Part shown: one piece after another, positions 1 to 29,531 of the stretch
Layout of the letters: every line of letters begins with the position of its first letter
Position numbering within the stretch: position 1 is the stretch's first letter
NCBI GenBank assembly: GCA_964543375.1
Contig: CAZIYD010000001.1
Span: 6,527 to 70,526, forward strand
Direction: 5' to 3'
Length of the DNA: 64,000 nucleotides
From: an uncultured Muribaculaceae bacterium
GTDB lineage: Bacteria > Bacillota_I > Bacilli_A > RF39 > UBA660
Translations under genes and position numbers: made by a program
Notes under the pieces: model-generated
Told to the model about the DNA's origin: nothing
Seen by the model: only the letters and a program-made list of their open reading frames with translations
Databases searched by the model: none

Positions 1-333
1 TTGTGAAGCAGCAATTTGTCCTGTAAAATATTCTAAAGATTCGAGGTCTTGTCTAAATCTTTCTTTTAAAGTTTGATCTTTTTCCTCTATATATTTTTGT
101 TTTAAATCCGCTATTTGTTTGTTTAACATTTTTGATAAACTAGAAAATGGAACAGGTACGTGTTTTATTACTGTTTTTACTCCCGGCAAACTAGATAAAG
201 ATGATAAAAACCCTGTTTGAATAATTTTAGGATAAGATATAACTGTTAAAATAGTACAATACTTATCGCTTATCACAAACTCACTAGCTTTAAACTCCAA
301 ATCTTTTGGAGCAATTTCTGCTTTTATATTCAT
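1..333 (-). CDS. VirB4/TrsE-family conjugative ATPase, N-terminal part. Partial: start at 333, continues beyond position 1.
   Basis: Manual translation of revcomp 1..333 gives MNIKAEIAPKDLEFKASEFVISDKYCTILTVISYPKIIQTGFLSSLSSLPGVKTVIKHVPVP... The DKY..IL.V..YP......GWL-type block matches the conserved N-domain motif of Gram-positive VirB4 homologues. ATG at 331..333 overlaps the TGA of the upstream ORF (ATGA). Confidence 0.45.
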   Translation of the reverse strand, partial: MNIKAEIAPKDLEFKASEFVISDKYCTILTVISYPKIIQTGFLSSLSSLPGVKTVIKHVPVPFSSLSKMLNKQIADLKQKYIEEKDQTLKERFRQDLESLEYFTGQIAASQ

Positions 334-941
334 ATAGACATCACCGTCCTAAACTCGCTTTTTGCGCCCCCATTCAAGAAATTATCAAGTATAACCCTCA
401 AATCTTCATTTGTTGTTTGCGCAGAATTAATCTCACAATTTGCCAAATTATTAATTAATGATCTTATCTTTTTATCTATTAATTCAGGATTTTTTTCTTT
501 AAACAAAAGATAGTATTCTGTATCTACAACATTATTATTGATAAAATATTGTCCTTTATCCATATCTTCTAAAATCATTTTTCTTATTTGAGGCTTAATA
601 ACGTCATTATACAAGAGTTGAAGATGACTTAAATAAAGAGTTATATCTACTGGTCTATCTGCAATTATTATCCAAAATTCATATTCTATACTGTTGTAAA
701 ATGTTTTTAAATTCTCTATTATTCTATATTGAGAATCAATATCTAATATAAATATATTTTTGGGGCTTATTTTCACACCCGTTACCTTCTCATTATTGTC
801 TAAAACAATAGTTCCATTAGTAATTGCTTTTATTGGAACAAAACTTTCTGTACTCCTATTAGGTGTATTACCTTTTTTTTGTGAATTCATAAAATCCCCA
901 TCCTTTCCATAAATATTTTCTTTGATTCGTATAAAATCCAA
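330..941 (-). CDS. Conjugation-associated protein, 203 aa. Either a separate ORF or the N-terminal segment of a split VirB4.
   Basis: ORF track. The block ..IVLDNNEKVTGVKISPKNIFILDIDSQYRIIENLKTFYNSIEYEFWIII.. resembles the extreme N-terminal region of Gram-positive VirB4/TrsE proteins. Its 5' end overlaps the PrgI-like ORF, so the real start may be the internal Met at 890. Confidence 0.3.
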   Translation of the reverse strand: MDFIRIKENIYGKDGDFMNSQKKGNTPNRSTESFVPIKAITNGTIVLDNNEKVTGVKISPKNIFILDIDSQYRIIENLKTFYNSIEYEFWIIIADRPVDITLYLSHLQLLYNDVIKPQIRKMILEDMDKGQYFINNNVVDTEYYLLFKEKNPELIDKKIRSLINNLANCEINSAQTTNEDLRVILDNFLNGGAKSEFRTVMSI

Positions 942-1188
942 ACATAGAGAACAAAAAAGAAATTACATTGTGATAGTTTGGAATAGGCATTACTAGTAAT
1001 GCTGTAAATAATGCAGGAATTAGTACAATTATTGTTTGTATTACTGTTGCTGTACCTATTACTAGCAAAAATATAAAAGATGTTAATAAACCAATTCCAA
1101 ATATTCCTAAGTCTATAGGTCTAAATACGTTAAATATTAATTGTCCTTTCTTTGTATTCGCTGGTATCAAATATATGTCTCTTTTCAC
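868..1188 (-). CDS. PrgI/VirB3-like small membrane protein (106 aa, two transmembrane helices)
   Basis: Two hydrophobic helices, a PNYHN motif and a C-terminal ..RKYLWKGW.. Its position between the VirB6-like and VirB4-like genes matches the pCF10 prgH-prgI-prgJ order. RBS GGAGGGAAA lies upstream. Confidence 0.4.
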   Translation of the reverse strand: MKRDIYLIPANTKKGQLIFNVFRPIDLGIFGIGLLTSFIFLLVIGTATVIQTIIVLIPALFTALLVMPIPNYHNVISFLFSMFGFYTNQRKYLWKGWGFYEFTKKR

Positions 1189-1208
1189 TAGTTTCCCTCC
1201 TTATATTT

Positions 1209-3110
1209 TTAAGATAGAGTTTTTCCCATCTTAAACGCCATATCTGTTTTTGCATCTTTAGAATATGCTGGACTTTTTAGAAGTGTTTCCAAACCACCTT
1301 TTGTTTTTTCTAAAGTTTCTGTTTTTTCTGCTATGTTACTATTTACTGACATTAAGTCATTTATAGCAGTATCGTACTCTGTACTTCCAGGAGCAAAGCC
1401 TCTACTAATTACACTATCAAGTTCAGCTTGTTTTAAAATTTTCGTAGATGTTAGTGAAGATATTTCAATTTCAGTATCAAGAATAAAGTTTTTCTTTGAT
1501 GCAATTGTTTCTGAAAAGATTTTATTATTAAAGTCTTTTGCAATTTGTTGTTTGCCCGCAGTTTTAGCATAGCTTTTAAACGCTTCTTTATCAGCGGTAG
1601 TAGCACCAGGTGCTGTTGCTGCTGTTTTTAAAGTACTATAAGTTGCATCTCCAGCATAGTTGGAACTATCGTTAATAAATGTCTCTGTATAACGTTCCAT
1701 TTCTTTCATTAGGTCGGCCCCTTTTACTCTAGCATTATCATATTCTTTTTGTTTTTCCCATCTTTCTGCTTTAGCCTTTTCTCGTGCTTGATCTGCTTGT
1801 TTATAATTTACATCTTTTGGTGTTACCCTAGAACTCATAGGGCCATCTTTGGCACCTTTTTTCATACCTTCATTTGCAGACTTAAGTATATCCGAAGCAC
1901 CTCCGGTTATTGCCCCTCCAACATCGGTAACTTTTTTTAAACCTCTTGCAAATTTTCCTGGAGGTCTATCACCCATTGCCTTGTCCATTCCCCATTTTCC
2001 AAGCTGAGAAGCAACCCCTAAAGTTGCTGTTGCTGCACCAACACCAAAACCAAGTGCCCCTCCAACAATTCCTTTTATAGCTTTTGAATCTTCATTTGGC
2101 TTATATCCAAACAATTCTTCCAACATTTTTGGTGCGCTTTGCATAAAAGCTAAAATAGCTAAAATCAACAATATAGATGGTAATCCCCCTAACTCTCCAC
2201 CAAAATTTGTAACATCAATCTTAGAAAGCAAAGCTGTTAGCAAAAACAATATCGAAAGTCTTATAAACAAAGATAAATATACTTTTATTACTAACGCTAA
2301 CCATTTTGAAAAAATTCCCTTAGAAGCTGATGCCGGATCTATATAAGAAATTACAGCTATAGGGGAAACAATTTCCAAAACGAAAAGTTTCAAAGACCTT
2401 ACAGCAATTTCTACACCCATTTTTAAAAATGACATAAGCATCATTGCCCCAACTAATGTTGAAATTAACATCATATATGATATCTTATAACCAGCCTTTG
2501 TATGTGCTACCATTTGATCATTTTCATTTAAAATTCCTATATTAACACCATCTGTTTGGGATTTAAACTTTTCTATAGCTTCTCTGGATTTGTCATCACT
2601 TTGGTTTGTTTCGTTTATAAAAACAGCAAAAACAGTCCGTGCAAGTTCCGCACCCTCATTACCAGTAGATACCCCCCCATTTGCACTTTCAGAAAAAAGA
2701 CTATTTAAATAACCTTCATTTATTATTAAACTTTGCAAATTATACGTCATTCTAAAAATTGATGGCATTACAACTACCAAAACCAAAGTTATTAAGGAGT
2801 GTGTAAAAAGTTTTCCTAATCCTTTTTGTTTATCCCCTGCATAGTCTGGGTTTGCTATCATTGATATAATTGAAAAGGCAAGCTTAAACACCATGAAAAT
2901 TCCTAAAAATATATATATTTTTGAAACTATTATTGATACAATTTCTTCTTGTTGTATCGCGCCTCTAATATCTGCAAGCTCCAGAGATGCTGCATACAGT
3001 GGTTGAATCAAATTATATATTATTCCATCCAAAAACATGAATAGATATCTAAAAAGGTCTGTTACTATCCAAAATCTAAATGCAAAAATTGTGTTAATTA
3101 GAAAATCCAT
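1209..3110 (-). CDS. VirB6/TrbL-like polytopic membrane protein with a long Gly/Ala/Lys-rich hydrophilic C-terminal extension (633 aa)
   Basis: About 7 predicted transmembrane helices in the first 330 aa, then a charged coiled-coil/low-complexity tail. Own promoter (TGtTATAAT) and RBS GGAGGGG at 3111..3180. Confidence 0.4.
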   Translation of the reverse strand: MDFLINTIFAFRFWIVTDLFRYLFMFLDGIIYNLIQPLYAASLELADIRGAIQQEEIVSIIVSKIYIFLGIFMVFKLAFSIISMIANPDYAGDKQKGLGKLFTHSLITLVLVVVMPSIFRMTYNLQSLIINEGYLNSLFSESANGGVSTGNEGAELARTVFAVFINETNQSDDKSREAIEKFKSQTDGVNIGILNENDQMVAHTKAGYKISYMMLISTLVGAMMLMSFLKMGVEIAVRSLKLFVLEIVSPIAVISYIDPASASKGIFSKWLALVIKVYLSLFIRLSILFLLTALLSKIDVTNFGGELGGLPSILLILAILAFMQSAPKMLEELFGYKPNEDSKAIKGIVGGALGFGVGAATATLGVASQLGKWGMDKAMGDRPPGKFARGLKKVTDVGGAITGGASDILKSANEGMKKGAKDGPMSSRVTPKDVNYKQADQAREKAKAERWEKQKEYDNARVKGADLMKEMERYTETFINDSSNYAGDATYSTLKTAATAPGATTADKEAFKSYAKTAGKQQIAKDFNNKIFSETIASKKNFILDTEIEISSLTSTKILKQAELDSVISRGFAPGSTEYDTAINDLMSVNSNIAEKTETLEKTKGGLETLLKSPAYSKDAKTDMAFKMGKTLS

Positions 3111-3180
3111 ATATAGATAGCCCCTCCATTTACTTATTATATATATATGTTATTATAACACACTATAAATAATTATGCAT

Positions 3181-3207
3181 AAAAAAATTGTTGATTTATT
3201 CAACAAT
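3181..3207 (-). terminator. Rho-independent terminator downstream of the small pilin-like gene
   Basis: attgttga-tttat-tcaacaat hairpin. On the transcribed minus strand it is followed by a U-run (the A7 on the plus strand at 3181..3187). Confidence 0.45.
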
Positions 3208-3220
3208 CTTATATGTGTTT

Positions 3221-3574
3221 TTATCTATCGTTATCTTGACTTGGAGGTGCTTGTTCTTGAGTTCCACCGCCACCAACACTTGCAGTTCCGGCCGCATCCC
3301 AACAAATTGTCCACTCTGTTCCACCAACAATTCTAGTAAGCAACCTTATTATAATAAATAACAAGAATACCGCTACTGCTGCTCCTGCTCTTTTACCAAG
3401 CATTCCAGTTGCTGCCTTTATTGCTTTTTCATCTCCTGATGTTACTGCTTTAAGTAAATCAATTGTTCCCATTATAAGTAACACTATTGGTACAGCAATT
3501 TGTAATATTAAATATGCCAATTTAACATATCCTAATATTGTAAGTAAATCTGCATTGCTACAAACTCCGCTCAT
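3221..3574 (-). CDS. Small Ala/Gly-rich hydrophobic protein (117 aa); candidate pilin-like or VirB2-like subunit
   Basis: Two or three transmembrane helices and a Gly-rich C-terminus (GGGGTQEQAPPSQ). Local GC is noticeably higher than the surroundings. A terminator follows immediately. Confidence 0.3.
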   Translation of the reverse strand: MSGVCSNADLLTILGYVKLAYLILQIAVPIVLLIMGTIDLLKAVTSGDEKAIKAATGMLGKRAGAAVAVFLLFIIIRLLTRIVGGTEWTICWDAAGTASVGGGGTQEQAPPSQDNDR

Positions 3575-3639
3575 ATATGTTTTTCTCCTTCCATAATCTA
3601 TAAGATAATAATACTTTATTTTAATTAATTTGTCAATAA

Positions 3640-4614
3640 TTACGACTTGAAAATCCCAAGCATCTTATCTGAATTATTTTGAGCTTGTTTTGAAAAACCA
3701 AGTCTAGCAAGCAAACTATCTAAATTTCTGCTAAACATCCTATCATTTAAAGGTGGAATGCTGTAGTAAACTTTTGTTTTTGCTTCGTTCTCTAAATCAG
3801 AAACATCTTTTGTATTTAATAAACTTTTATTTAACACTATCTTTTTACCACTCATTTTACTAAACACATCGCCATGTCTTTTTATTAATTTATTAAGTTT
3901 TATAGTTGATGGTTCCATTAAATATAGAACATCGTTACAAAGTGTTTCATCACCACTTGCATTAAGATCAACAAGTATAACATCATACCTTGAACCCATT
4001 TTATTTATTTCATTAAAAAGGTCAGCATTTATAGTTGAATACATATCTCTATCGTTATAATAAATAAAATCTGTTTTATCAACCTCTATTGCCGCTACTC
4101 TGTAATTTAAAGACAATTGTTTTTTTAACATATATACTAATGATGTAGCCCCAGCATGAGCTGTTAAATTCTTTATTCCCAATATTTTAACTTTGTTTTC
4201 TATTACTTTATTTGTAACTTCTTTTGTTAAATTATCTAATTGGTGAATATGTGCAACATCCTTATATGTGTTTGTGTAATTAATTAAATGCAATATACCA
4301 TCTCTGTTTTTAGTGAAATTATAAATTCCTATAGATATCAATTTTGACAAAAACAAGGAAGATGATGCATTAGGGGTATCATCCAAAAGCAATATTACCT
4401 TATTCATATCCATATTTGCAGATAGTTTTTGCAAATTTGATAAATCTGAATAATTTTTTATTGCTGTAATGTCCAAAATCATCTTATTATAAAAAAAGTT
4501 AGAGAACATTTGTATTATTTCTTCAGATTCAAATACTCCGTTAACTTTCTTTATAATTTCAATATTCAATGAACTTATTTTATTATCAAAAAGATTTACT
4601 ACTGCTACGTTCAT
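3640..4614 (-). CDS. TadZ/CpaE-like protein: degenerate ParA/MinD-fold ATPase with a receiver-like N-domain
   Basis: KILGIKNLTAHAGATSLVYMLKKQL occupies the position of the deviant Walker A (KGGxGKT), and DVILVDLNASGDE that of the Walker B region. Lies inside the Tad-like gene set. Confidence 0.4.
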   Translation of the reverse strand: MNVAVVNLFDNKISSLNIEIIKKVNGVFESEEIIQMFSNFFYNKMILDITAIKNYSDLSNLQKLSANMDMNKVILLLDDTPNASSSLFLSKLISIGIYNFTKNRDGILHLINYTNTYKDVAHIHQLDNLTKEVTNKVIENKVKILGIKNLTAHAGATSLVYMLKKQLSLNYRVAAIEVDKTDFIYYNDRDMYSTINADLFNEINKMGSRYDVILVDLNASGDETLCNDVLYLMEPSTIKLNKLIKRHGDVFSKMSGKKIVLNKSLLNTKDVSDLENEAKTKVYYSIPPLNDRMFSRNLDSLLARLGFSKQAQNNSDKMLGIFKS

Positions 4615-4631
4615 TATTCCACCTTCTAAAT

Positions 4632-5051
4632 CTAATTTATTTTTGTTAAATCTTTTAGTACTGAAGTTTCACCACTAACTGGTGATTGCATAAATTTACC
4701 CACTATTGGGAAATCAAAAATAACATACGTTGTTACTACATAATAATACCCGCCGTTTTCAGCAACGACTTCTTTTATACAATAGTTATTAGTTTCATTT
4801 AAACATCCCGAATCCTCTTTTTTTATAGGACTGGAACCTCCATCATAATACTTTATGTTAATCAGATATTTCGCTATCGGTTCCTTTGCTTTGTCATATG
4901 TTTCATATTGTTCAAGGATGTGTACAATTTGATTCTTAGCTCTAAAGGTTGTAGCGTAGTTCATGCCAACTGCCATTATACCAATAAATATTAATATAAA
5001 TATCATTATAATTTGGAAAGTTAACGTTCCACCAATTGCTTCCTTCATCAC
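4632..5051 (-). CDS. TadE-like pseudopilin (139 aa), paralog 1
   Basis: N-terminal MKEAIGGTLTFQ followed by a hydrophobic helix, and a shared GGYYYVVTTYV motif with 5332..5751. Confidence 0.4.
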   Translation of the reverse strand: MMKEAIGGTLTFQIIMIFILIFIGIMAVGMNYATTFRAKNQIVHILEQYETYDKAKEPIAKYLINIKYYDGGSSPIKKEDSGCLNETNNYCIKEVVAENGGYYYVVTTYVIFDFPIVGKFMQSPVSGETSVLKDLTKIN

Positions 5052-5069
5052 TAATCACCCTTTCATAAA

Positions 5070-5240
5070 TTATAAAACTATATGATTTGTTACTCTTTCG
5101 CCAGTCTTTTTTACTCCGCCCCAGTCATCATTGATTTCTTTTTGTCTTCCATTCCACCATACCCAAAAAAATGCCAATACTGCGCCAACCGCAACAATTG
5201 TTATTATAGTTAAAGTTGTTTCTCCACTTGCCGCTTTCAT
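5070..5240 (-). CDS. Flp-like small pilin candidate (56 aa), absent from the ORF track
   Basis: Manual translation: MKAASGETTLTIITIVAVGAVLAFFWVWWNGRQKEINDDWGGVKKTGERVTNHIVL. Strong RBS (AGGAGGTG 5 nt upstream). Leader, then Gly, then a hydrophobic helix. Lies between the two TadE-like genes. Confidence 0.35.
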   Translation of the reverse strand: MKAASGETTLTIITIVAVGAVLAFFWVWWNGRQKEINDDWGGVKKTGERVTNHIVL

Positions 5241-5331
5241 TTGTACACCTCCTTCCTCATATGCTTATATAAATTATACATTAGCAATTTTATTTTTTCA
5301 AGTTTTATGTTACTTAGTTTACGCTTTGTTT

Positions 5332-5751
5332 TTACAAATTATTCAGTCTCCCCATTATTTGAGTTTCGCCTTTTACGGGCAAGTTGGCAATCTTTCCTAT
5401 CATTGGAAAATTTATAGTAACATACGTTGTTACTACATAATAATACCCACCCGTAGTTAATGATTTTTTTTCTATACAATAGTTTGTTGTATTATTTAAA
5501 CAAACACTGCCTCCATTTTTATTTAAATCTGTATTTTTAGAGCCTCCATAATAATTGATTTTTGACAAATATTCTTCTATGTTTTGAGAGGCATCCTCAT
5601 ATATCTCTTTATCTTGCAATATAGTTAATATTTGATTTTTAACTCTGAAAGTTACCGCATAATTTATACCCATCGCCATTAATCCCATATATATAACAAC
5701 AAATAGCATCATTAATTGAAATAAAAGTGTTCCACCAATTGCGGTTTTCAT
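5332..5751 (-). CDS. TadE-like pseudopilin (139 aa), paralog 2
   Basis: Same architecture and GGYYYVVTTYV motif as 4632..5051. Confidence 0.4.
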   Translation of the reverse strand: MKTAIGGTLLFQLMMLFVVIYMGLMAMGINYAVTFRVKNQILTILQDKEIYEDASQNIEEYLSKINYYGGSKNTDLNKNGGSVCLNNTTNYCIEKKSLTTGGYYYVVTTYVTINFPMIGKIANLPVKGETQIMGRLNNL

Positions 5752-5769
5752 TATTAATCACCCTTTCTT

Positions 5770-6561
5770 TTATATGCCCATTCCACCAAAGTTACTCATC
5801 ATAGCAAACATTAATACTGCCATTACCCCTAGACCAACTATGGTCATCATCATCATACCTTTATTTTCCATTTTATCCAAACGCTCTTTATATCTAGTAC
5901 TTCTAGATTTATTTTGTAATGATGATACACTCTTAGAGAACATTATTAATTGTTCGTGTTTATCATCTTGGGAACCAAGAGAAAGTCTATATAGTAATCT
6001 CATCATTCTAATAGAGTCAGAAACGGGATATTTTTTAGCAAAATCCATATATGGCTCTACCGTAGAGTTACCAGCATTTATTTTGGCAATTAACTCTCTT
6101 AAACCTGGTCTAAAGACTTCTGGTGAACTATCTATAGATCTGGCTATCGCAACTGGTATAGTGTAGTGTTGTGATAATATTTCTAAACCCTTTAAGAAAT
6201 ATGGTAATTGTAAGTCTATTTCGTGAAGGTGTCTTTTGTAATAAGATCTAACACTAGAATAACCCTGTTTAAATATTAAATATCCAAGTACAAAAGCAGC
6301 AATTAAATTTATAAAATTCATATTGTTAAGGAATAAGAATACAAAAACTAGTATCGCTATTATTGCGTTTCTTATTCTTTTTCCATATTCTTTATCTACA
6401 TTTACGTTTTCTCCATATTTTGAAATTAAAAAGAACTCGTAATCATCTTCCATTAATCCTTTAAAATACTCTTGGTTATCATCCATGAATTTTTTTCCAC
6501 TAATCAATTTATGACTTTGAAAAACAATAAAAAGTATAATTAATAATATAATAAATTCCAT
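5770..6561 (-). CDS. TadC-like platform protein (GspF-domain family)
   Basis: 263 aa. N-terminal, central and C-terminal transmembrane segments. Paired with the upstream TadB-like gene (4-nt overlap at 6561). Confidence 0.5.
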   Translation of the reverse strand: MEFIILLIILFIVFQSHKLISGKKFMDDNQEYFKGLMEDDYEFFLISKYGENVNVDKEYGKRIRNAIIAILVFVFLFLNNMNFINLIAAFVLGYLIFKQGYSSVRSYYKRHLHEIDLQLPYFLKGLEILSQHYTIPVAIARSIDSSPEVFRPGLRELIAKINAGNSTVEPYMDFAKKYPVSDSIRMMRLLYRLSLGSQDDKHEQLIMFSKSVSSLQNKSRSTRYKERLDKMENKGMMMMTIVGLGVMAVLMFAMMSNFGGMGI

Positions 6562-7457
6562 TACTCAGCACCCACATTCTCGTTATAATATTTTTCTCCA
6601 CTTATAAGAAAATAACTATTCGTCAACACTATAGCATGTAGTATAGCACTAACCATAATATCATCTAAAAGTTCAATATAAGAGTTTACACCTAATAAAT
6701 ATTGAACTAACATGACCATAAAATATAGTGCTACCCCAAGCTTTATAAAAGATTTGTGGAATGTTTTTCTATCAATTCTATCTCTGTAAACAGCCTCAAC
6801 TAGTGTGTCTATATCTACAAGCATAGCATCAAGGGCATCATCTGTATCTAACGATCCCTCTTTTGTTATTTGTAAAAACAATTGATGCATATTTCTAACC
6901 ATATAATAATCATATTTTGAATTCATATATGCTATAGATTCATCTATAGAGCCATTTTCATAAGATAAATCTATCATGTGTTTAACATCTGAAAGAACCG
7001 GATCTTCAAGTATCCCGGATGAGTAAACTCCCTCCAAGGCGTTTACAAAAGATTGAGTAACAGAAAATTCCATTATGGTGTTTGTAGTATAAACTTGAAT
7101 TTGTTCAAATAAATACTCACTATAAATTCTTTTGTATTTTAAATAAGCTAAATAAGGTACTACAAGTACAGCTAAAACCACATATATTATTGATACAAAT
7201 ATACTATAAAAATAAAGATAGGATATTACTGCAGCACCACCACCAAACATTATTACTTGAGAAACATACTCTTTAGTTGAATAATCAAGTCCTAAAGTTT
7301 TTACCTTTTCACTTATTTTTTTAAACGAATACGGACTTATTTTTTCATATAAATCTCCGGCTTGTTTCATTATAAATTTATAAGAGTTTTCGCCTGTGCT
7401 TTGTCTATAGAAAAGAACAAATAAAGCAATAACTATCAAAACTATAAGAACCCACAT
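6561..7457 (-). CDS. TadB-like platform protein (GspF-domain family)
   Basis: 298 aa with the same topology. Sits immediately downstream of the CpaF-like ATPase. Confidence 0.5.
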   Translation of the reverse strand: MWVLIVLIVIALFVLFYRQSTGENSYKFIMKQAGDLYEKISPYSFKKISEKVKTLGLDYSTKEYVSQVIMFGGGAAVISYLYFYSIFVSIIYVVLAVLVVPYLAYLKYKRIYSEYLFEQIQVYTTNTIMEFSVTQSFVNALEGVYSSGILEDPVLSDVKHMIDLSYENGSIDESIAYMNSKYDYYMVRNMHQLFLQITKEGSLDTDDALDAMLVDIDTLVEAVYRDRIDRKTFHKSFIKLGVALYFMVMLVQYLLGVNSYIELLDDIMVSAILHAIVLTNSYFLISGEKYYNENVGAE

Positions 7458-7471
7458 ATAACACCTTCTTT

Positions 7472-8548
7472 CTACAGAATTTCTTCTGTTTCATTATTTA
7501 TAAATATATTACTTTCTAAATTTACCCCTTGTGCCGATAAATAATTAATTAAATATTTTGTTGGATTAGACAAGAAAACTTGACCCTCCATTGTTTTTCT
7601 ATATATTGTATTGTGATTTGCAATATTATTCTCATCAACATAAAATTCACAGACTTCACAAACCTCACGAACAAATCTTTTTGTTTCTTTATCTTGATAA
7701 CCCCTTATATGAACACCAAGTTGCACATATCTATGTATTGATTTTAAAAACTGATCTATATCGATATTGGTTTCTAGTAAACTATACATACGAGATGGTA
7801 TGCTTTCTGCTTTATCAGAGTGAATTGTAGATATTATATTATGTCCTGACGATATAGAGTTACGCACAGCCATTACAGCCTCTGCAGAACGAACTTCAGA
7901 TAAAAGTATCCATCTTGGATTTTGTCTCATACAAGTAACTAAAACTTCACTATAAGAAGCTATATTATTAGTTTTCATAGAAACAATATCTCTTTCCGGA
8001 AATATTCTATCCAAATGAAGTTCTAATGTATCCTCTATTGTTATTAATTTTTCATTTTCCAAAGTATGTGATGCCAAATATTTAAGAAACTCTGTCTTAC
8101 CAGAACCAGTTTCACCACTTACTATTATATTGCAGTGTCCAGAAACACATCTAAGTAAAAAGTCATGAATTTCTTCTGTTATATACTTTTCTTCTAATAT
8201 TTTCTCTTTCTTGAGTCTAATTTTAGCAGGAGTTTTACGCATAAGCATAGCAACTCCATTTCTAGCAATAGAATCATGAATGAAATTCAAACGGAGTTCT
8301 GCACTTTCAGCATCAAGAAAAGGATGAGCCATATTAAATGTCTTGCCCATCATATTAGAACATTGAAACGCCAACTTTTCTATTATTGCATTATTAACAT
8401 CTTGAACTTCAGCTCTATATACACCCTTAGATAATGATTTTAACCATAACTGACCACTATTACTATAAGAAACGTCTGTTATATCATCGTCATCTAAAAA
8501 TCTTGCTAAAGGACCAAAGTCTACGTTATTGAACATATTATTGTCCAT
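7472..8548 (-). CDS. CpaF/TadA-type secretion ATPase (VirB11/GspE superfamily)
   Basis: Walker A IIVSGETGSGKTEFL, Walker B-like ILLSEVR, 358 aa. Confidence 0.75.
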   Translation of the reverse strand: MDNNMFNNVDFGPLARFLDDDDITDVSYSNSGQLWLKSLSKGVYRAEVQDVNNAIIEKLAFQCSNMMGKTFNMAHPFLDAESAELRLNFIHDSIARNGVAMLMRKTPAKIRLKKEKILEEKYITEEIHDFLLRCVSGHCNIIVSGETGSGKTEFLKYLASHTLENEKLITIEDTLELHLDRIFPERDIVSMKTNNIASYSEVLVTCMRQNPRWILLSEVRSAEAVMAVRNSISSGHNIISTIHSDKAESIPSRMYSLLETNIDIDQFLKSIHRYVQLGVHIRGYQDKETKRFVREVCEVCEFYVDENNIANHNTIYRKTMEGQVFLSNPTKYLINYLSAQGVNLESNIFINNETEEIL

Positions 8549-8574
8549 ATACTCATCCCCTTTTTGCTTTTATT

Positions 8575-9396
8575 TTATTCTTCCGTTGTCACATCTGGTA
8601 AATCATCTTCAGATATTAAACTGGTATTAATTTCTATAAATGTTTTAAGTTCTTGATTTCCTATTACTGGTGTTAGGTTAGCATTTGCGTCTTTATAAGA
8701 TCTTGTTGTAGGAACAGGTACCAACTCTGCTGATATCTCTCTTACATTACTTAAATATAGTGCCTTTCTTAACAATAAGTGTATTTCTTCTGGAACCGCA
8801 AATAAAAGAATACTTGGAGTTCTAGAATCTTCAGTATTTTCAAACACATGTTGACCATTACTATCCTTAACTGCTAAAATCTTAATGTCTTGAACTAACT
8901 TTCCATATAAAATTTTGCCATCAGCATCTAGTGCTTTTAAATAAATGTCTACATAATTATTAGGGAATATTGAATTACCATATGTTTTTTCAACATCCAC
9001 CGGTAAGTTAAATGCAGTAAAACCATCTCTAATGTTTATAAATGCAGAATCTGGCAATCTATCTTCTGTTATAATATTATCCTCAAAAAACAAACTACCA
9101 TATGGTATGTATGCATTATAACTAGACCATTTACCAATTATAAGATTTGGATTTGTTATTATTTTCCCTTTTATCATTGCTGGTGGAACCTTCATCAAAC
9201 CTATCTTATCTTCTGTTATTCTTTCTCTAGGTTGAATTGGTACCTTAGCAAAAGGCACATCTATTGGATTTATTGCTTGATTTACTCTAAAATTATAACC
9301 AAAGTATATTACAAGTACTCCAAGTACAACACCAAGAATAGTGACTGTGTTCTTATTTTGAAAGAACTTTTTTAATTTAAAACTTAAATTTCCCAT
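8575..9396 (-). CDS. CpaB/RcpC-like Flp pilus assembly protein
   Basis: N-terminal transmembrane segment (TVTILGVVLGVLVIYFG), a SAF-like middle region and an RcpC-like C-terminus (ILAVKDSNG...LLFAVPEE..LLLRKAL). Confidence 0.4.
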   Translation of the reverse strand: MGNLSFKLKKFFQNKNTVTILGVVLGVLVIYFGYNFRVNQAINPIDVPFAKVPIQPRERITEDKIGLMKVPPAMIKGKIITNPNLIIGKWSSYNAYIPYGSLFFEDNIITEDRLPDSAFINIRDGFTAFNLPVDVEKTYGNSIFPNNYVDIYLKALDADGKILYGKLVQDIKILAVKDSNGQHVFENTEDSRTPSILLFAVPEEIHLLLRKALYLSNVREISAELVPVPTTRSYKDANANLTPVIGNQELKTFIEINTSLISEDDLPDVTTEE

Positions 9397-9475
9397 TTTA
9401 TTCTCCTTCTATGCTATTATGTAATAATAGTATCATAAAATTATAAAAGTTTCTACTAATTTTATTAAAATTTAT

Positions 9476-9513
9476 AAAAAAGAGTTAACTGTTTCTAGTT
9501 AACTCTTAATTTT
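9476..9513. terminator. Bidirectional rho-independent terminator between trmL and the start of the Tad-like gene set
   Basis: Perfect 11-bp inverted repeat aagagttaact-gtttct-agttaactctt, flanked by an A-run and a T-run. Confidence 0.6.
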
Positions 9514-11377: not shown

Positions 11378-12883
11378 TTATATTTTTTTATCTAAAATTG
11401 TAAGACCGTCTAACTTTGAAAGTTCTTCTTTTGTTTTAGGAGTTATTGTAAAACCTTTACTTCCTAATTCTGCTACTAATATTTCATCATTTTCTTTTCC
11501 TACAACAAAATAGGCATGTCCAACAGAAGCACTATCACTAGGATTAAGTGGTTTTTTAAAAAATATATCTCCAGCACTTACATTAGGAATTTGTTCCTTC
11601 ATGTTGTTGCCTTGTAAGAAAGTTCCACTTAAATTTGTATTATTTTTTAATCTTAAATTTGCATTTTTCTCTCCAGTCACATCATATATTAGCATTTGTA
11701 TCCAACTTGCACTATTTGGAGCATTTTTACCTTGTTTTAAATTTGTATCTAAACCCTCCATATATAAATCATGTCTCCCAGACGAACTAAAAGGGGCTCT
11801 TAAATTATTTTCAAAGTAGAAATTAAGCGCCGAGGTCAATCCGCCCTTTACTCCTCCTGTTCTTTTTCCTTCTTCTATTGCTTCTAAGTATTGACTGTTA
11901 AGTTTTGTTTTTTCTAAATCCGATAATTGTTGATATTCTTTACTACCAACAATTAAAGCACTAGATCCATCATAGTTAGAATAATTAAGATTTGTTGCTA
12001 AACTTTGATTTTCTGCATGAGTTATTTTGGGTGTTGGTTCTATTACCGGAATATTATTTAAAGTTGTAAAACTATCTTTTGAAGTTTCTGTTGGTGATGG
12101 TGTTGGTGCTTGGGTTGGTGCTGGTGTTGGCGCTTGGGTTGGCGCTTGGGTTGGTGCTGGAGTTGGCGCTTGGGTTGGCGCTTGGGTTGGTGCTGGTGTT
12201 GGCGCTTGGGTTGGTGCTGGTGTTGGCGCTTGGGTTGGTGTTGAGGTAACATTTGGTTTAGATGTTTGTTCTGAATTTTTATCATCTAAACTAAGTTTAC
12301 CACCTCTTCCACCATACTCAAAGCCATCACTTGACAGAAAAGTATTATCAGAAATAAATTTACCACCTCTTCCGCCATATTCAAAACCACTACTTGATAG
12401 AAAGGTATTATCAGAAAGTCTAGAAAATGTTATTGATTGTATTTGTGATATTAAAGAGTCTATTTCCGCTACTAAACCATTTAATTTGTTTTTGTTAGAT
12501 TGATCTAAATCATAAGCTTGTTTTTGACGTTTATAAGTTTTTGTTTGTTCTTCTGTTGCACCTTCTCCCATTTTTTTTGGGATACTTAAATTTTTTATAC
12601 TTCCATAAACTTTATTATATTCCTCTATTTTTAATTTCAAATCCTCAATTTTTGATACCATGTTATTTAAATTTGTTTGTTCAGAAGTAATTATACTGAA
12701 TTTATTTTTTAAATCATTTATTTTTTCATCTACTACTTCTTTTACTGAACTTTCCCAATTAACATTAAAATCTAAAAAATTCAAATTTACACTCGATAGA
12801 TTTTTAGCTATATTTGTAAGTGTTTGTAAATTTGAATACTTTATTGCGTCTAAATATTTATCGTATGCTGCTTTATTATCCAT
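11378..12883 (-). CDS. T7SS-associated polymorphic protein, family 1 paralog A (501 aa)
   Basis: N-terminal ~170 aa is about 60% identical to 27793..29214 (..NWESSVKE.., IITSEQTNLNN..). Internal FLSSxGFEYGGRGGK duplicated repeat, (PTQA/PTPA)n linker, and a C-terminus with GDIFF....VGHAYFVVG (NlpC/P60-like His block, no Cys). Confidence 0.55.
   Translation of the reverse strand: MDNKAAYDKYLDAIKYSNLQTLTNIAKNLSSVNLNFLDFNVNWESSVKEVVDEKINDLKNKFSIITSEQTNLNNMVSKIEDLKLKIEEYNKVYGSIKNLSIPKKMGEGATEEQTKTYKRQKQAYDLDQSNKNKLNGLVAEIDSLISQIQSITFSRLSDNTFLSSSGFEYGGRGGKFISDNTFLSSDGFEYGGRGGKLSLDDKNSEQTSKPNVTSTPTQAPTPAPTQAPTPAPTQAPTQAPTPAPTQAPTQAPTPAPTQAPTPSPTETSKDSFTTLNNIPVIEPTPKITHAENQSLATNLNYSNYDGSSALIVGSKEYQQLSDLEKTKLNSQYLEAIEEGKRTGGVKGGLTSALNFYFENNLRAPFSSSGRHDLYMEGLDTNLKQGKNAPNSASWIQMLIYDVTGEKNANLRLKNNTNLSGTFLQGNNMKEQIPNVSAGDIFFKKPLNPSDSASVGHAYFVVGKENDEILVAELGSKGFTITPKTKEELSKLDGLTILDKKI
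12058..12285 (-). repeat. Near-perfect tandem 12/24-nt repeats encoding the (APTQ/APTP)n linker
   Basis: Repeated ggtgctggtgttggcgcttgggtt units visible directly in the sequence. Confidence 0.8.
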
Positions 12884-18005: not shown

Positions 18006-19265
18006 ATGGGACAAATATTAATAAAAAAAGAAAGTTTAGTTACACTAAAGGGTACTTTAGAGACTTTAAAAGGTGAATTTAATACCTCTATAACTGATAT
18101 TAAAACAAATTTATTAAATATTTCTAATAACTGGGAAGGAAAAAAAGCAGATGAAACATTATATGTTATAGAAACTTTAAACAAAACTAATTCTGATTTA
18201 TTAATAAGAATAAATGAAAACATAGAATATATAGAAAGTGTAATATCAACTTTAGATAAAGTTGAAAGTGTTGAGGTGGAAACAAAACCGGTTGAAACCC
18301 CTTTACCAACGGCATCTCCAACCCCCACACCAACTATGGTGCCAACCGCAATTCCAACAGCAAGTCCTAGTGACACAGCAACCATAGATAATATTCCTGT
18401 TATATCTCCAACACAACCACCGCCTTCTTCTATTGATTCAAATCAAAAATTAATTAACAATATAAAAGATTTGGAAACTACGGGTAACTATAGTAGATTA
18501 ATAAATTATCAAGGAGCAAACTGGAACTTTTTTACTATGAAAGATCCCGAATGGGCTAATCTTCCATATAGCAGGGGTAATAGTCACGGGTGGAAGACAA
18601 TTGCAACAAACGGAACACATCCATTTGCCGGTATTAACGCATTAACAAACTCTGGAAATTATTATGTTGGAGATAAGAAAACAGTTATGATGGACATTGC
18701 CGCTGGATTTGGAAACATAAAGGATATAGATCCTACCACCGGAAGAACAAAACTATATACTAACGGTTTTAAGGAAATACAAAATACAGGAGGAAAAACA
18801 GGTGGATTAGGTTCAAATAGAAAATTTCACTCATTAATTAAAGATGCGGGAATTCAAACCTATGATTTAGGTTCAAATATTCAAAATGCGGCCAAAGAAT
18901 TAGAAAGTGGAAATCTAGTTCACTGTATAAGTCAAAACAATAGCAGTATAGCGCCTTCTGGACATTATATGGTAATGACAGGAATTGAAAAAGATAATAA
19001 AGGTAATACAACTGGTTTTTATTTGTTAGATAGCTTATCTCGAACTCAAGAAGACTACAATAATATGAAAAATCAAAATAAATCTCCTATATCTTCAAAT
19101 TGGTTGGGAACAATAGATGTAATTGAACCAGGATTAATAAGAATAGAAAACACCCCCGAAGCATTAGCCGGTGCAAAACTAGCGTCATTTAGATCTGGCG
19201 AAGGATTAAAGAGTAATACAAAAACGATTTTTTCTTATGAAGAATACATATCAAAAAAGAAATAA
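18006..19265 (+). CDS. WXG100-domain fusion protein, family 2 paralog 1 (419 aa): N-terminal WxG helical domain, PT-rich linker, C-terminal Cys/His putative peptidase-like domain
   Basis: NNWEGKKADE WxG motif at aa ~40. Linker PTASPTPTPTMVPTAIPTASP. C-terminal ..LVHCISQN...SGHYMVMTG. Confidence 0.55.
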   Translation: MGQILIKKESLVTLKGTLETLKGEFNTSITDIKTNLLNISNNWEGKKADETLYVIETLNKTNSDLLIRINENIEYIESVISTLDKVESVEVETKPVETPLPTASPTPTPTMVPTAIPTASPSDTATIDNIPVISPTQPPPSSIDSNQKLINNIKDLETTGNYSRLINYQGANWNFFTMKDPEWANLPYSRGNSHGWKTIATNGTHPFAGINALTNSGNYYVGDKKTVMMDIAAGFGNIKDIDPTTGRTKLYTNGFKEIQNTGGKTGGLGSNRKFHSLIKDAGIQTYDLGSNIQNAAKELESGNLVHCISQNNSSIAPSGHYMVMTGIEKDNKGNTTGFYLLDSLSRTQEDYNNMKNQNKSPISSNWLGTIDVIEPGLIRIENTPEALAGAKLASFRSGEGLKSNTKTIFSYEEYISKKK

Positions 19266-19306
19266 TTATTGACATAACATCAAAAAATGTTATAATTATT
19301 TTACTT

Positions 19307-19380
19307 GCGGATGTAGTTCAATGGTAGAATTTCAGCCTTCCAAGCTGACTACGTGGGTTCGATTCCCATCATCCGCTCCA
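19307..19380 (+). tRNA. tRNA-Gly (anticodon UCC)
   Basis: Cloverleaf: acceptor GCGGATG/CATCCGC, anticodon stem TCAGC/GCTGA, loop CTTCCAA, T-loop TTCGATT, encoded CCA. Confidence 0.9.
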
Positions 19381-19393
19381 TATATAAAATTTT

Positions 19394-19418
19394 AACAACT
19401 TTTAAAGTTGTTTTTTAT
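19394..19418 (+). terminator. Rho-independent terminator after tRNA-Gly
   Basis: aacaactt-tta-aagttgtt hairpin followed by tttttt. Confidence 0.55.
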
Positions 19419-19495
19419 TGTTTAAAAAAGTAAAGTTTTAATATTATAAAACTAATAAATATAATTGAACTTCATTATTTTTTGTTTTAAAAACA

Positions 19496-19504
19496 TGCTA
19501 TAAT
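19496..19504 (+). promoter_or_regulatory. Extended -10 promoter (TGcTATAAT) for 19530..20696, a duplicate of 17972..17980
   Basis: Nearly identical ~110-nt upstream region repeated. Confidence 0.4.
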
Positions 19505-19529
19505 ATAAAATATAGTAAGAGGTGATTCT

Positions 19530-20696
19530 ATGGGACAAATATTAATAAAAAAAGAAAGTTTAGGTACACTAAAGAGTGATTTAGAGACTTTAAAAGGTGA
19601 ATTTAATACTTCTATAACTGATATTAAAACTAATTTATTAAATATCTCTAATAATTGGAAAGGAAAAAAGGCAGATGAAACATTATCTGTTATAGAAACT
19701 TTAAATAAAACTAATTCTGATTTGTTAATAAGAATAGATGAAAACATAGAATATATACAAGAAGTAATAACAACTATAGATAAAGTTGAAAGTGTTGAAG
19801 TGGAGGTTAAACCAAAACCAACACAAGAACCAAAGATTAATTCCAATGGGTTAGACTCTATTCCATTAGTTAATCCAGTAATTGCCAAACCACTCGTTAA
19901 TGAAAATAGTTCTCAAATAAATCCTTCAAGTTATACAACTAAATATATGGATCACGTAATTGATAATCTTAAAAATGGTATTAGTCCTTTTACAAACGAA
20001 AATATGACTGAATTATCAAAGAATTATAATCAAACAGGAACCATAAGGGATAGAGGCACAGAATTCTTTAAAGAATCAGAACAAGCATTAAAACAGTTAC
20101 AAGATAGATTAAGAAGTGAAAAAGGAAACGACGGCAAACCTCTTTGGGGAACTCCAGCAGCAACAGAAGCAATAGTGCATTTCATGTTAAAAACAGGAAT
20201 TAAAATTCCTTCATATCCTACAAAAAAACAAGATACTGTCGGGAATTATAGATATCTAGGTTTAAATACGGGTTGGTTGGATAACAATAATGGTTTGGAT
20301 TGTAATAATCTTTCTGTTTGGCTTAATATTAACTCGGGAAGAATGCCAGAGGGGAAACACTTTTATGTGCCCAATCCTAATCAAAGTTCAATAAAATTAT
20401 ACCGCCCATCTCAAATAAGTCTACCTACGGGCGGAGAAGCAGGAGATCTAGTATCAAGAGAAAATCATGTTGGAACATACGTATTTGAAGATGAAGAATA
20501 CGTATATGTTATTGAGGCAGCAAATATAAGACAAAATGCTACTCCAGGAAGTCTTATTACTATGCTTCCTAAAGATGGTAAAAGTAGAGGATTGGGACCA
20601 AATTATGTGTTATATCCTAAAGCACACTTTAATTTTATTGTAAAAGAAGACGATATTTTTCTTGTAAATAATCCAGCATCTATACCAAGACCATAA
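19530..20696 (+). CDS. WXG100-domain fusion protein, family 2 paralog 2 (388 aa), with an NlpC/P60-like C-terminal domain
   Basis: N-terminal 95 aa ~90% identical to 18006..19265 (NNWKGKKADE). C-terminal GLDCNN...(55 aa)...GDLVSRENHVGTYV matches the NlpC/P60 Cys...His spacing and motifs. Confidence 0.55.
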   Translation: MGQILIKKESLGTLKSDLETLKGEFNTSITDIKTNLLNISNNWKGKKADETLSVIETLNKTNSDLLIRIDENIEYIQEVITTIDKVESVEVEVKPKPTQEPKINSNGLDSIPLVNPVIAKPLVNENSSQINPSSYTTKYMDHVIDNLKNGISPFTNENMTELSKNYNQTGTIRDRGTEFFKESEQALKQLQDRLRSEKGNDGKPLWGTPAATEAIVHFMLKTGIKIPSYPTKKQDTVGNYRYLGLNTGWLDNNNGLDCNNLSVWLNINSGRMPEGKHFYVPNPNQSSIKLYRPSQISLPTGGEAGDLVSRENHVGTYVFEDEEYVYVIEAANIRQNATPGSLITMLPKDGKSRGLGPNYVLYPKAHFNFIVKEDDIFLVNNPASIPRP

Positions 20697-25273: not shown

Positions 25274-26206
25274 CTAATCTTCTAAAAGATCTCTCCAATT
25301 GTCTACAAAGCCAATTCTATGTAATATTTTTGAAAGTGGAATAGATGATACCTTTCCATCTAATAAGTCTATCTCATAACCAAGCTCATATAACAATAAT
25401 CTAAATTCTTCTTCAGTAAGTAAATGTTTCATTACTATAATTATAGAGAAAAAATCGTTTTTTCCATATACATACTTATCATCAACTTTAGGAATGTTTA
25501 AAAATTCATGATACTTTGTATCTGGAATATCCCTTTGTGTCTTGTGATCGTATAATATATCCTCATGAGCACATAAATTTCTATAATTTGCGGTTACTGA
25601 TAGAAAAATATCCAAAACATCAGGTTTTATTCCATAGTAATTTGCAATTTCAGTCTTATCCTCATCTTTTAATATAGAAAAAAGTTCACTTATTATACCA
25701 AAAGATAAAACTTTAACCAGTATCCACATCGGTATATAGCCATAGTTGGTTATATAGTGTAAGGTAGCACTGTGTTGCTTACTATTAATTTTTATTTGTC
25801 TTTTCATTTTTCCAAGAACATCGTTAACCCTTTTTGATTTTAATGAATCTCTATTGAAATTAGTAAATCTTAAGTAGTCTTTCTCTTTTATCCCATATTT
25901 TTTAGACAATATATAACTCATTACTGACTTTATATTGTTTTCTACTATAAGAATGTTCTTAAACATTATATTTCTAATATTCCTATCAAATAAGAAAAAT
26001 CCATATAGTTCTTCAAAAGTTGTTCCATCTATAAAAGTTCTATCTTCTTGAGATTTAAAAAAAATATATCTATAACCATTTATAAAAAAATAGTTTTCTC
26101 TAAATAGTATCTTTTTTACTTTTTCTTCGTTTGATATAATTAAACCCTTGCTCTTTAGTATATCTATTTGTTGTTCTAAAGTCTTAAATTCTTTTTTAAA
26201 TGCCAT
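25274..26206 (-). CDS. Abi_2 (AbiD/AbiF-like) abortive-infection family protein
   Basis: 310 aa with the ..TANYRNLCAHEDILYD.. block typical of Abi_2. Basic, AT-rich ORF. Confidence 0.5.
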   Translation of the reverse strand: MAFKKEFKTLEQQIDILKSKGLIISNEEKVKKILFRENYFFINGYRYIFFKSQEDRTFIDGTTFEELYGFFLFDRNIRNIMFKNILIVENNIKSVMSYILSKKYGIKEKDYLRFTNFNRDSLKSKRVNDVLGKMKRQIKINSKQHSATLHYITNYGYIPMWILVKVLSFGIISELFSILKDEDKTEIANYYGIKPDVLDIFLSVTANYRNLCAHEDILYDHKTQRDIPDTKYHEFLNIPKVDDKYVYGKNDFFSIIIVMKHLLTEEEFRLLLYELGYEIDLLDGKVSSIPLSKILHRIGFVDNWRDLLED

Positions 26207-29222: not shown

Positions 29223-29531
29223 CTAAAAATCTATACTTCTTATAATTGTTTCTCCGCTGTCTTCGTTATTTTTATATATTTGCATTGAGGTTTCAATAAG
29301 CTCTGATAAGGTCAAAAGTTCTATCGCTCCGTTTTCAAGATCTTTCGCAAGATTAAATGATGAATCTTTATATAAATCATAAGAATTACTTATAGAATCC
29401 TTCCAGTCTTCACCAAGACCGGTAACTAAACTTTCCAAATTCCCCTTTTTCTCCTTAATCTTTGTAATATTTTCATTTATCACTTTTAATGCGTTTTCAA
29501 TCTCAACAAAGTTAACTATAACTGGTTTCAT
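29223..29531 (-). CDS. Small alpha-helical protein (102 aa); candidate WXG100-like/Lap-like partner of the upstream large protein
   Basis: ..LVTGLGEDWKDSISNSYDL.. hairpin-like W motif. ATGA overlap with the 1231-aa gene stop. Confidence 0.35.
   Translation of the reverse strand: MKPVIVNFVEIENALKVINENITKIKEKKGNLESLVTGLGEDWKDSISNSYDLYKDSSFNLAKDLENGAIELLTLSELIETSMQIYKNNEDSGETIIRSIDF

Follow-up and report, generated by a model that had tools for sequence, protein, structure and literature searches.

A gene block of ~18 kb, in which a gene set resembling that of the Tad (type IVc) pilus is followed by the genes of a Gram-positive type IV secretion system (T4SS), begins in the stretch of DNA analysed here (64,000 nucleotides of contig CAZIYD010000001.1 from an uncultured Muribaculaceae bacterium, assigned by GTDB to RF39; this whole stretch is called the window below). 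The window covers the first 9.4 kb of the block. We read it as a domesticated hybrid of a pilus and a T4SS, of the type found in the plasmid pLS20 and in integrative and conjugative elements (ICEs) of mycoplasmas, with a Tad-like module. We consider it reasonably probable that the complete block, a Tad-like filament set together with a Gram-positive T4SS and homologous to genes of the pLS20/pXO2 plasmids, is a fixed chromosomal and vertically inherited machine for contact between cells in hundreds of RF39-like gut Bacilli, which are uncultured and have reduced genomes.

Loci compared and layout of the block

Relatives were collected from one genome per species, which gave at least 546 stretches with VirB4 relatives (73-95% identity), and species-level locus comparisons were made on the best 80 of these at least 546 stretches, with loci of ~20 kb. 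All 80 loci were from metagenome-assembled genomes, labelled as uncultured Bacilli, Tenericutes, Mollicutes etc., a few carrying other labels such as Muribaculaceae; UBA660, after which an RF39 family is named, was among them. The DNA readable for gene searches consisted of the ~20-kb loci and the 64-kb window. The continuation past position 1 was read from L001, an ENA contig that encodes identical proteins and runs 12 kb beyond that point; the VirB4 translation was identical to L001:12778-14562. Controls for profile-profile comparison with hhalign were unrelated membrane families, all of which gave 0.6% or less.

Positions 1-9513 hold 13 co-directional minus-strand open reading frames (ORFs) with short or overlapping junctions. 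All ORFs listed in a first-pass annotation of this DNA were found on the minus strand at the coordinates it gave; a thirteenth, at 330-890, had been missed. The genes of the block were each kept in 52-81 related loci, and because of this conservation the ORFs are regarded as real genes. The annotation had described one contiguous Tad-like set joined to a Gram-positive VirB6-VirB3-VirB4 module, and its arrangement was upheld: the gene order from CpaB to VirD4 was the same in ~60 of the 80 species-level loci. Its gene names held by profile for CpaB, the CpaF/VirB11-family ATPase, VirB6 and VirB4, and failed for the TadE and Flp labels, which found no profile match. The seven proteins after the CpaB-like and ATPase genes gave no match in Pfam or NCBIfam.

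Upstream of the block lies trmL (SpoU methylase, Pfam 112 bits). Between them a terminator-like hairpin at 9480..9507 (minus strand), with an 11-bp stem followed by a T run, is predicted to end trmL transcription before the block; two terminator-like sites were found, against 0.0 expected in shuffled sequences. The strong insulating terminator that had been proposed at 9476..9513 was thus recovered, as a hairpin at 9507..9480. It is followed by a promoter-like site, TTAATA-17-TATAAT (9440..9468, minus strand), a consensus match only, with a predicted function, and then by a ribosome-binding site, GAAGGAGAA, and the ATG of the CpaB-like gene. Judged from these signals, the block is predicted to have its own start, behind a real insulating terminator. 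Two internal promoter-like sites on the minus strand are suggestive: TTGAAA-17-TATAAT (5273..5301; 11/12, the top-scoring site in 9.6 kb) stands directly before the gene of a 56-amino-acid (aa) peptide, and TTGACA-17-TATTAT (3608..3636; 11/12) directly before that of a 117-aa VirB2-like protein. These gaps held the two best sigma-70-like matches of the strand, the total count of such matches being not above that in shuffles. Such sites would fit the two products being abundant structural subunits, a suggestive point.

Past position 1, L001 carried the rest of VirB4, a wall hydrolase with an M23 domain, a lipoprotein of 227 aa, VirD4 and two N-methyl pilins, so that the suspected extension of the block beyond the window was confirmed. 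In relatives, the downstream end of the block meets genes for rhodanese, DedA/VTT, RmuC and DUF3603 proteins. Reading the block as a prophage or defence island was dropped, since no phage or defence families were found among its proteins with Pfam and no near-identical DNA was found in the phage collection.

The type IV secretion half

The membership features of a Gram-positive conjugative T4SS that were found comprise VirB4, VirB6-like, VirB3-like and VirD4 proteins and a wall hydrolase. Positions 1..333 (minus strand) hold the first 111 codons of a 594-aa VirB4 ATPase, the remainder of which lies beyond the window; it matched VirB4_plasma (Mbov_0397) with 345 bits (E 5.7e-103) and the CD1110 family with E 1.7e-47, in agreement with the first-pass placement of 1..333 in VirB4. 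Its Walker A motif was intact, and the Walker motifs were intact in all three ATPases of the block. The N-terminal (TraC-like) domain of VirB4 is encoded as a separate 186-aa protein (330..890, minus strand; precomputed match to PF26593, TraC-like), the stop of which overlaps the next start (ATGA). The 894-aa VirB4 model of mycoplasma ICEs was tiled by three ORFs, the 106-aa VirB3-like protein covering 2-96, the 186-aa protein 94-279 (E 6.7e-17) and the 594-aa protein 294-891. The split into 186- and 594-aa ORFs was kept in 78 loci and, because of this and of the ATGA overlap, is not regarded as a frameshift artefact.

The VirB3-like small membrane protein (106 aa; 868..1188, minus strand) scored 21.9 bits with TcpE, below the Pfam gathering cut-off (GA) of 29.9, and gave 82.4% in hhalign with DUF5592 of pLS20-type plasmids. 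The gene at 1209..3110 (minus strand) encodes an extended VirB6/TrbL-like channel protein of 633 aa, with a polytopic N-terminal and a hydrophilic C-terminal half, which matched Pfam TrbL_4 with 34 bits (GA 27) and, weakly, the mycoplasma-ICE families MMCAP2_0566 and Mbov_0396 of NCBIfam. By their sequences, the block's VirB3, VirB4 and VirB6 are closest to the mycoplasma ICE families. VirD4, read from L001, matched the CD1115 family with 296 bits (cut-off 250) and Pfam T4SS-DNA_transf with 186 bits, and was kept in 73 loci. The wall hydrolase (1095 aa, also on L001) combined Peptidase_M23 (79.5 bits) and LysM with an NlpC/P60-like tail; NlpC/P60 was carried by the hydrolases of relatives as well.

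A VirB2-like T4SS pilin of 117 aa, a two-helix hairpin, is encoded at 3221..3574 (minus strand). Fifteen of 22 members of its family matched Pfam T4SS_pilin PF18895 (best 1.1e-6) and one matched TrbC/VirB2; the window copy itself had no Pfam match. The family had 133 members in 73 loci, 51 of which were long (150-567 aa), with a signal peptide, a Cys-rich ectodomain and a C-terminal VirB2 hairpin (for example L014:5540-7243, L023:5554-7107 and L058:135-2866); from this layout the long forms may be adhesin-pilin fusions. In L021, a six-gene insertion of unknown function lies between two VirB2-like genes.

The Tad-like half

Two membership features of Tad systems, CpaB/RcpC and the secretion ATPase, were found at the head of the block. 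The gene at 8575..9396 (minus strand) encodes a CpaB/RcpC-like pilus assembly protein of 273 aa, with an N-terminal transmembrane helix, SAF and RcpC. The window copy matched Pfam RcpC with 26 bits, just below the GA of 28.8, and TIGR03177 with E 6e-12 (45 bits, cut-off 71); RcpC was matched by eight of eight CpaB-like relatives (best 1.4e-8), and the family gave 94.1% with canonical CpaB in hhalign. The CpaF/TadA/VirB11-family ATPase (358 aa; 7472..8548, minus strand) matched Pfam T2SSE with 92.7 bits (GA 24.9), and both of its Walker motifs, A (GETGSGKT) and B (ILLSEVR), were intact. Its NCBIfam scores were 114 bits for VirB11, 101 for conjugal-transfer-associated TadA and 98 for TrbB, all under the equivalog cut-offs, and these scores do not separate CpaF/TadA from VirB11 or TrbB. 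The best annotated relatives were the 'VirB11' proteins of pLS20/pXO2-type conjugative plasmids of Firmicutes (31-33% identity). The ATPase was 354-358 aa long in this species and its closest relatives and elsewhere had a median of 436 and a maximum of 494, an N-terminal extension of ~80 aa having been lost or gained between relatives.

The ATPase gene is followed by genes for two membrane proteins, of 298 aa (6561..7457, minus strand) and 263 aa (5770..6561, minus strand). The former is a TadB-like inner-membrane platform protein with one transmembrane helix, two more, a cytoplasmic helical domain of ~125 aa and a further two; the latter, a TadC-like second platform protein, is its paralogue with the same topology. 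A profile of the 298-aa family built from RF39 sequences only was unstable, giving 74.6% with five canonical TadB proteins and 0.9% with a large TadB set dominated by actinobacteria. A hidden Markov model search with the family against 1.84 billion representatives returned 303 matches, among them full-length relatives at 23-34% identity. With the remote relatives added, the profile gave 92.6% with canonical TadB over 219 columns, 78.5% with the large TadB set, 97.8% with p38 of pLS20 and 91.2% with the neighbouring 263-aa protein; the TadB signal was stable only once these remote relatives or p38 had been joined to the profile. The 263-aa protein gave 96.2% with p39 of the pLS20 type and, merged with p39, only 38-46% with TadB profiles. 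Profile searches of the PDB with both proteins gave no match, and a Foldseek search with a low-confidence model of the 298-aa protein gave GspF-family cytoplasmic domains (GspF/OutF/EpsF) as seven of the nine best matches, at a non-significant E of ~1-3. The first-pass placement in Tad/GspF families thus stood for 7472..8548 by T2SSE, whereas for 5770..7457 it failed with Pfam T2SSF, the 298-aa protein alone of the two giving a high hhalign probability with TadB. From these comparisons we conclude that the pair are probably remote paralogous TadB/TadC-like platform proteins beyond the reach of Pfam T2SSF. For the first of them, grouping at 90% identity gave at least 7,997 clusters; it has no Pfam family, and the source-given names shown were all 'hypothetical protein'.

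The gene at 3640..4614 (minus strand) encodes a TadZ/CpaE-like positioning protein of 324 aa, with a receiver-like N-terminal domain and a C-terminal domain of ParA/MinD fold. Its model (predicted local distance difference test score, pLDDT, 78) is that of a TadZ-like two-domain protein, and the assignment is made from this predicted structure; TadZ homology was not detectable by sequence or profile comparison, and a profile search of the PDB gave no match. The P-loop is degenerate (AHAGATS, lacking the Lys), its G, A, G and T being invariant.

Three small proteins are candidate pilins. The 139-aa pilin-like protein a (5332..5751, minus strand; kept in 57 loci), a candidate minor pilin, has the leader M[KR][ED]A[IV]GG, a hydrophobic helix of ~25 residues and a globular part; protein b (139 aa; 4632..5051, minus strand) is its paralogue in the same cluster, and the family gave 62% with p40 of pLS20 (DUF4320) in hhalign. 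Between the two genes, a 56-aa Flp-sized peptide (5070..5240, minus strand) that starts MK[AE]A[TS]GE[LT]N[LM]T and continues as a hydrophobic helix is the candidate major pilin; this ORF is real, since 55 loci had it, with an N-terminus that hardly varied. The 56-aa and 139-aa proteins have in common a leader of six residues, the last of them Gly, which would parallel, by analogy, the use of one peptidase site by Flp and TadE/F. The two N-methyl pilins at the far end of the block, on L001 and outside the window, carry KAFTMVE and GFTLIE; one, of 439 aa, had a weak TadF match (E 0.0055), and the GFTLIE pilins scored best against ComGC and ComGE.

Inheritance and mobility

Pairwise protein identities of VirB4 and the flanking RmuC were compared over 435 locus pairs and were closely correlated (r = 0.93), VirB4 being the more conserved (mean identity 0.82, against 0.75 for RmuC). 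VirB4 identity was also correlated with that of the two platform proteins (r = 0.86 and 0.88) and of VirD4 (r = 0.85). The upstream flank of leuS, DUF6568 and trmL recurred in species with no more than 57-66% identity to the Tad-like proteins of the window, and the downstream rhodanese/DedA/RmuC flank recurred in ~30 loci. No relaxase, oriT, integrase, transposase, replicon or att-like boundary was found in the block, the 64-kb window or the ~80 related loci. In plasmid and phage collections, megablast with the block gave no near-identical DNA, its G+C content was close to that of the surroundings with no compositional break, and the remainder of the window holds housekeeping genes (ABC-F, NrdD, HtrA, RNase R, YchF, UvrA/B).

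Because order and flanks were kept, VirB4 tracked RmuC, and neither mobility genes nor plasmid or phage copies were found, the sequence comparisons indicate that the block is a long-resident, vertically inherited chromosomal locus under purifying selection and not an ICE. The annotation had suggested, as one possibility, the edge of an integrative element, and had asked for a gene-order comparison to see whether the block is accessory. The first idea does not agree with the missing mobility genes and boundary, the kept housekeeping flanks and the correlation with RmuC, and an accessory block is contradicted by the gene-order comparison, in which the order and both flanks were kept in distant species. 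The leftward search for conjugation genes that it had called for was productive in part: L001 supplied VirD4, and neither a relaxase nor an integrase. Two separately inherited loci, the case that it had set against its own proposal, is countered by the co-divergence of the halves, with the exception that they are separable, as judged from four of the 80 loci (below). In these four (L034, L042, L043 and L066), housekeeping genes (P-type ATPase, peptidase M29, amine oxidase) directly precede the T4SS half.

Proposed function and alternatives

In the proposed mechanism, the ATPase and the TadB/C-like platform, placed by the TadZ-like protein, would polymerise the 56-aa peptide on a minor-pilin primer. 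The filament would catch a partner cell and draw it close, the hydrolase would open the wall, and a channel of VirB4, VirB6 and VirB3, fed by VirD4, would move a macromolecular substrate between the cells. The data show the gene content, the remote homologies, ATPase motifs that are intact, joint inheritance and a fixed place in the chromosome; we infer the filament of 56-aa peptide, the contact made by it and the movement of DNA or protein through the channel. Our best guess for the substrate, by analogy with mycoplasma chromosomal transfer, is DNA, in a relaxase-independent or trans-relaxase chromosomal exchange; nearly as likely, by analogy with what has been proposed for Patescibacteria, it would be protein or nutrients exchanged with a host cell. 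RF39-like bacteria probably depend on the block for contact with other cells.

Several results weigh against this proposal. Pfam T2SSF, the curated definition of the platform family, was matched by none of 40 family members or 10 remote relatives, so that the pair falls outside that definition and its homology is remote, and the AlphaFold2 model of the 298-aa protein was poor (pLDDT 58). We infer a filament although the 56-aa peptide has no G/XXXXEY motif and gave 0.1-0.5% with Flp in hhalign, its identity as Flp being rejected at profile level, and although TadE was likewise rejected for the 139-aa proteins (0 of 22 members matched; hhalign 0.9% or less). No prepilin peptidase (TadV, Peptidase_A24) was found in the window or among the called genes of L001 and L096-L099, either in the block or up to ~10 kb from it. 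On the T4SS side, none of 42 candidates for a VirB8/TcpC-like scaffold matched Pfam, and hhalign with the VirB8-like protein of the pLS20 type gave 10% or less; a divergent VirB8-like protein may still be present. The T4SS half was without an adjacent Tad half in the four loci mentioned. The relaxase searches covered the ~20-kb loci and the 64-kb window, a relaxase elsewhere in the genome being possible, and the substrate and the direction of transfer are proposed solely by analogy.

That the block is instead the conjugation module of an active ICE or integrated plasmid, spread horizontally, is very improbable. The full core of conjugation genes is there, a VirD4 of the CD1115 family among them, conjugative plasmids and mycoplasma ICEs are the closest relatives that have been characterised, and the upstream neighbour genes vary somewhat across species; against this stand the lack of a relaxase, integrase or transposase in the block, the window and the ~80 loci, the like chromosomal position on both sides in distant species, the tracking of RmuC by VirB4 (r = 0.93), and the lack of near-identical plasmid or phage copies and of a compositional break. 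A reading without any type IV filament is also unlikely; in it the ATPase would be a T4SS VirB11, and the membrane pair, small peptides and ParA-like protein would be accessory or regulatory T4SS subunits. The top NCBIfam score of the ATPase (VirB11, 114 bits), the failure of the Pfam T2SSF, TadE and Flp models, the lack of a prepilin peptidase in the loci examined and a pLS20 paper reporting no pilus components (PMC8557374) would all agree with it. It leaves aside the homology to TadB that profile-profile comparison gave for the platform pair, CpaB/RcpC in eight of eight relatives tested, the TadZ two-domain fold, the one leader motif of the 56-aa and 139-aa proteins and the canonical GFTLIE N-methyl pilins inside the same block. 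Moreover, in diderm systems VirB11 is not known to come with GspF-like partners.

A Tad-like pilus captures DNA in Micrococcus luteus, and the machine might import DNA, for competence or nucleotide scavenging, with the T4SS acting like Helicobacter pylori ComB or archaeal Ced; to this we give a low probability. The chromosomal locus without relaxase, the GFTLIE pilins scoring best against ComGC and ComGE and a weak match of VirB4 to CedD (E 3.8e-12) would fit import, and a scavenging role is kept open by a report that de novo nucleotide synthesis is missing in RF39 bacteria (PMC13155120). Set against import are the VirD4 gene kept in 73 loci, the lack of ComEA/ComEC near the block, and the large wall hydrolase and adhesin-like VirB2 paralogues, which point to cell-to-cell contact. 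As the ComB uptake system has no VirD4 (PMC12857230), the retention of VirD4 favours export or exchange over pure uptake. The contact machine proposed above is preferred to uptake, and a wider version of it can be put forward tentatively, as possible but somewhat doubtful: an order-level RF39-like lineage would keep a domesticated, relaxase-less hybrid of a Tad-like retractile filament and a conjugation-type channel in its core genome and would use it to exchange DNA, nucleotides or protein with other cells, an exchange both obligate and dependent on contact. If this were true, its way of life would parallel that of Patescibacteria epibionts and, by homology, conjugation systems of the pLS20/pXO2 type would also build a type IV filament.

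Comparison with known systems

Conjugative plasmids of the pLS20/pXO2-pAW63 type showed the same Tad-like order of an ATPase, proteins of ~270, ~245 and ~120 aa (DUF4320) and a ~47-aa peptide. The view in the first-pass annotation that Gram-positive conjugation systems normally have no Tad platform is therefore wrong for this family, in which homologues of the ATPase and of the two membrane proteins stand with a 120-aa protein and a 47-aa peptide beside the VirD4-VirB6-DUF5592-VirB4 genes. One common order was found in a Paraclostridium plasmid, pBatNRS213 (pLS20 family), pXO2, Listeria pLIS25 and Enterococcus pZB18, with a small protein before the ATPase and, further on, a VirB2-like protein, VirD4, an extended VirB6, DUF5592, a protein of ~190 aa, VirB4 and a hydrolase; these are the same T4SS parts as in the block, in a slightly different order. 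The plasmids carry a relaxase, surface exclusion, a thioester adhesin and quorum-sensing control, whereas the RF39-like block is chromosomal, vertically inherited and without relaxase. The block adds the CpaB-like protein, the TadZ-like protein and GFTLIE pilins, has VirD4 after VirB4, and its hydrolase is M23-based; because of the added CpaB, TadZ-like protein and GFTLIE pilins, the RF39 version appears from its sequences to be more Tad-like than the pLS20 type.

In the description of the pLS20 family, genes 38-41 are listed as unknown and pilus components are stated to be absent (PMC8557374); set against that list, genes 37-41 match block genes in size and topology. Genes 38/39 of the family were homologous to the RF39 platform pair (L084-L085, L088-L091). 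The p38-type protein gave 89.7% with canonical TadB on its own and 95.7% when merged with the RF39 family (hhalign), and the leader ML[ED] is common to the p40 and p41 types. According to a paper of 2024 and a review of 2025, Gram-positive systems have no VirB11 and apparently no pili (PMC11730352, PMC12857230). The pairing of Tad and T4SS is thus not unique to the window, and its Tad-like nature seems to have gone unrecognised in the literature searched.

With Tad/Flp systems the block shares a CpaB/RcpC-like protein, a CpaF-family ATPase, a paralogous pair of single-domain TadB/TadC-like proteins right after the ATPase, a TadZ/CpaE-like protein of receiver and ParA fold, a peptide as small as a pilin of this type and, with the same leader as the peptide, larger proteins that resemble pseudopilins. 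Unlike them, the block has no TadV in the locus, no G/XXXXEY motif, no match to Pfam T2SSF, Flp or TadE and no Lys in the TadZ-like P-loop, and its set is coupled physically and evolutionarily to a T4SS. The mycoplasma ICE proteins (Mbov_0395/0396/0397, MMCAP2_0565/0566) were the best NCBIfam matches of the block's VirB3-, VirB4- and VirB6-like proteins, under the equivalog cut-offs, and are encoded in the same order of small pilin-like protein, transmembrane protein and VirB4, the mycoplasma VirB4 being a single fusion where the block has three ORFs. Mobility, by a DDE transposase, also sets mycoplasma ICEs apart, and to our knowledge they do not carry a Tad-like set.

By analogy, the closest functional counterpart would be the relaxase-less chromosomal T4SS of Patescibacteria. 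There, a chromosomal monoderm-type T4SS usually lacks a relaxase and has been proposed to serve a function other than self-transfer, and attachment to the host requires type IV pili (PMC12102498). Both are genome-reduced uncultured lineages with a fixed chromosomal T4SS and several T4SS_pilin/VirB2-like paralogues; Patescibacteria differ in belonging to another phylum and in that type IV pilus genes have not been described in the same operon. In IncI (R64) and PAPI-1, a type IV filament provides or stabilises the mating contact for a T4SS (PMC12857230), a functional logic like that proposed for the block. These systems differ in their diderm hosts, in type IVb pili built by PilQ/PilB-type machines and in separate clusters on mobile elements, and are not homologous to the block at the operon level. 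In the literature on RF39, nothing relevant was found on VirB4, pili or competence.

Bacteria of the RF39 type are abundant in animal and human guts and uncultured, and a strongly constrained, vertically inherited contact machine would offer a concrete handle on their way of life. The locus also ties unannotated protein families to TadB/TadC on the one side and genes 38-41 of pLS20 on the other. This tie suggests that Gram-positive conjugation systems of the pLS20 family assemble a type IV filament, which would bear on mating-pair formation in liquid.

Other features of the window

Between leuS and trmL, a 501-aa protein without family (11378-12883, minus strand) had weak matches to proline-rich repeats. 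The GC skew was locally reversed over its gene (+0.07 to +0.10, against ~-0.2 around it), and no homologue was found at the same position in L011 and L096-L099, the loci whose upstream flanks were read. Two plus-strand ORFs of 419 and 388 aa with no Pfam match (18006-20696) lie around the only tRNA, tRNA-Gly(tcc) at 19307-19380, and may be a small inserted island in an otherwise minus-strand region. An Abi_2 (abortive-infection-like) gene (25274-26206, minus strand; 137.7 bits) stands between HtrA and small ORFs. The gene at 34199-38809 (minus strand) encodes a 1536-aa protein with an FHA and two FtsK/SpoIIIE domains, the architecture of an EssC-like type VII secretion ATPase; it is adjoined by 29531-33226 (1231 aa) and 27793-29214 (473 aa), neither with a Pfam match, and from its domain architecture the three may form a type VII secretion-like cluster. 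The 858-aa protein with Big_2 repeats encoded at 61174-63750 (minus strand) is probably a surface adhesin.

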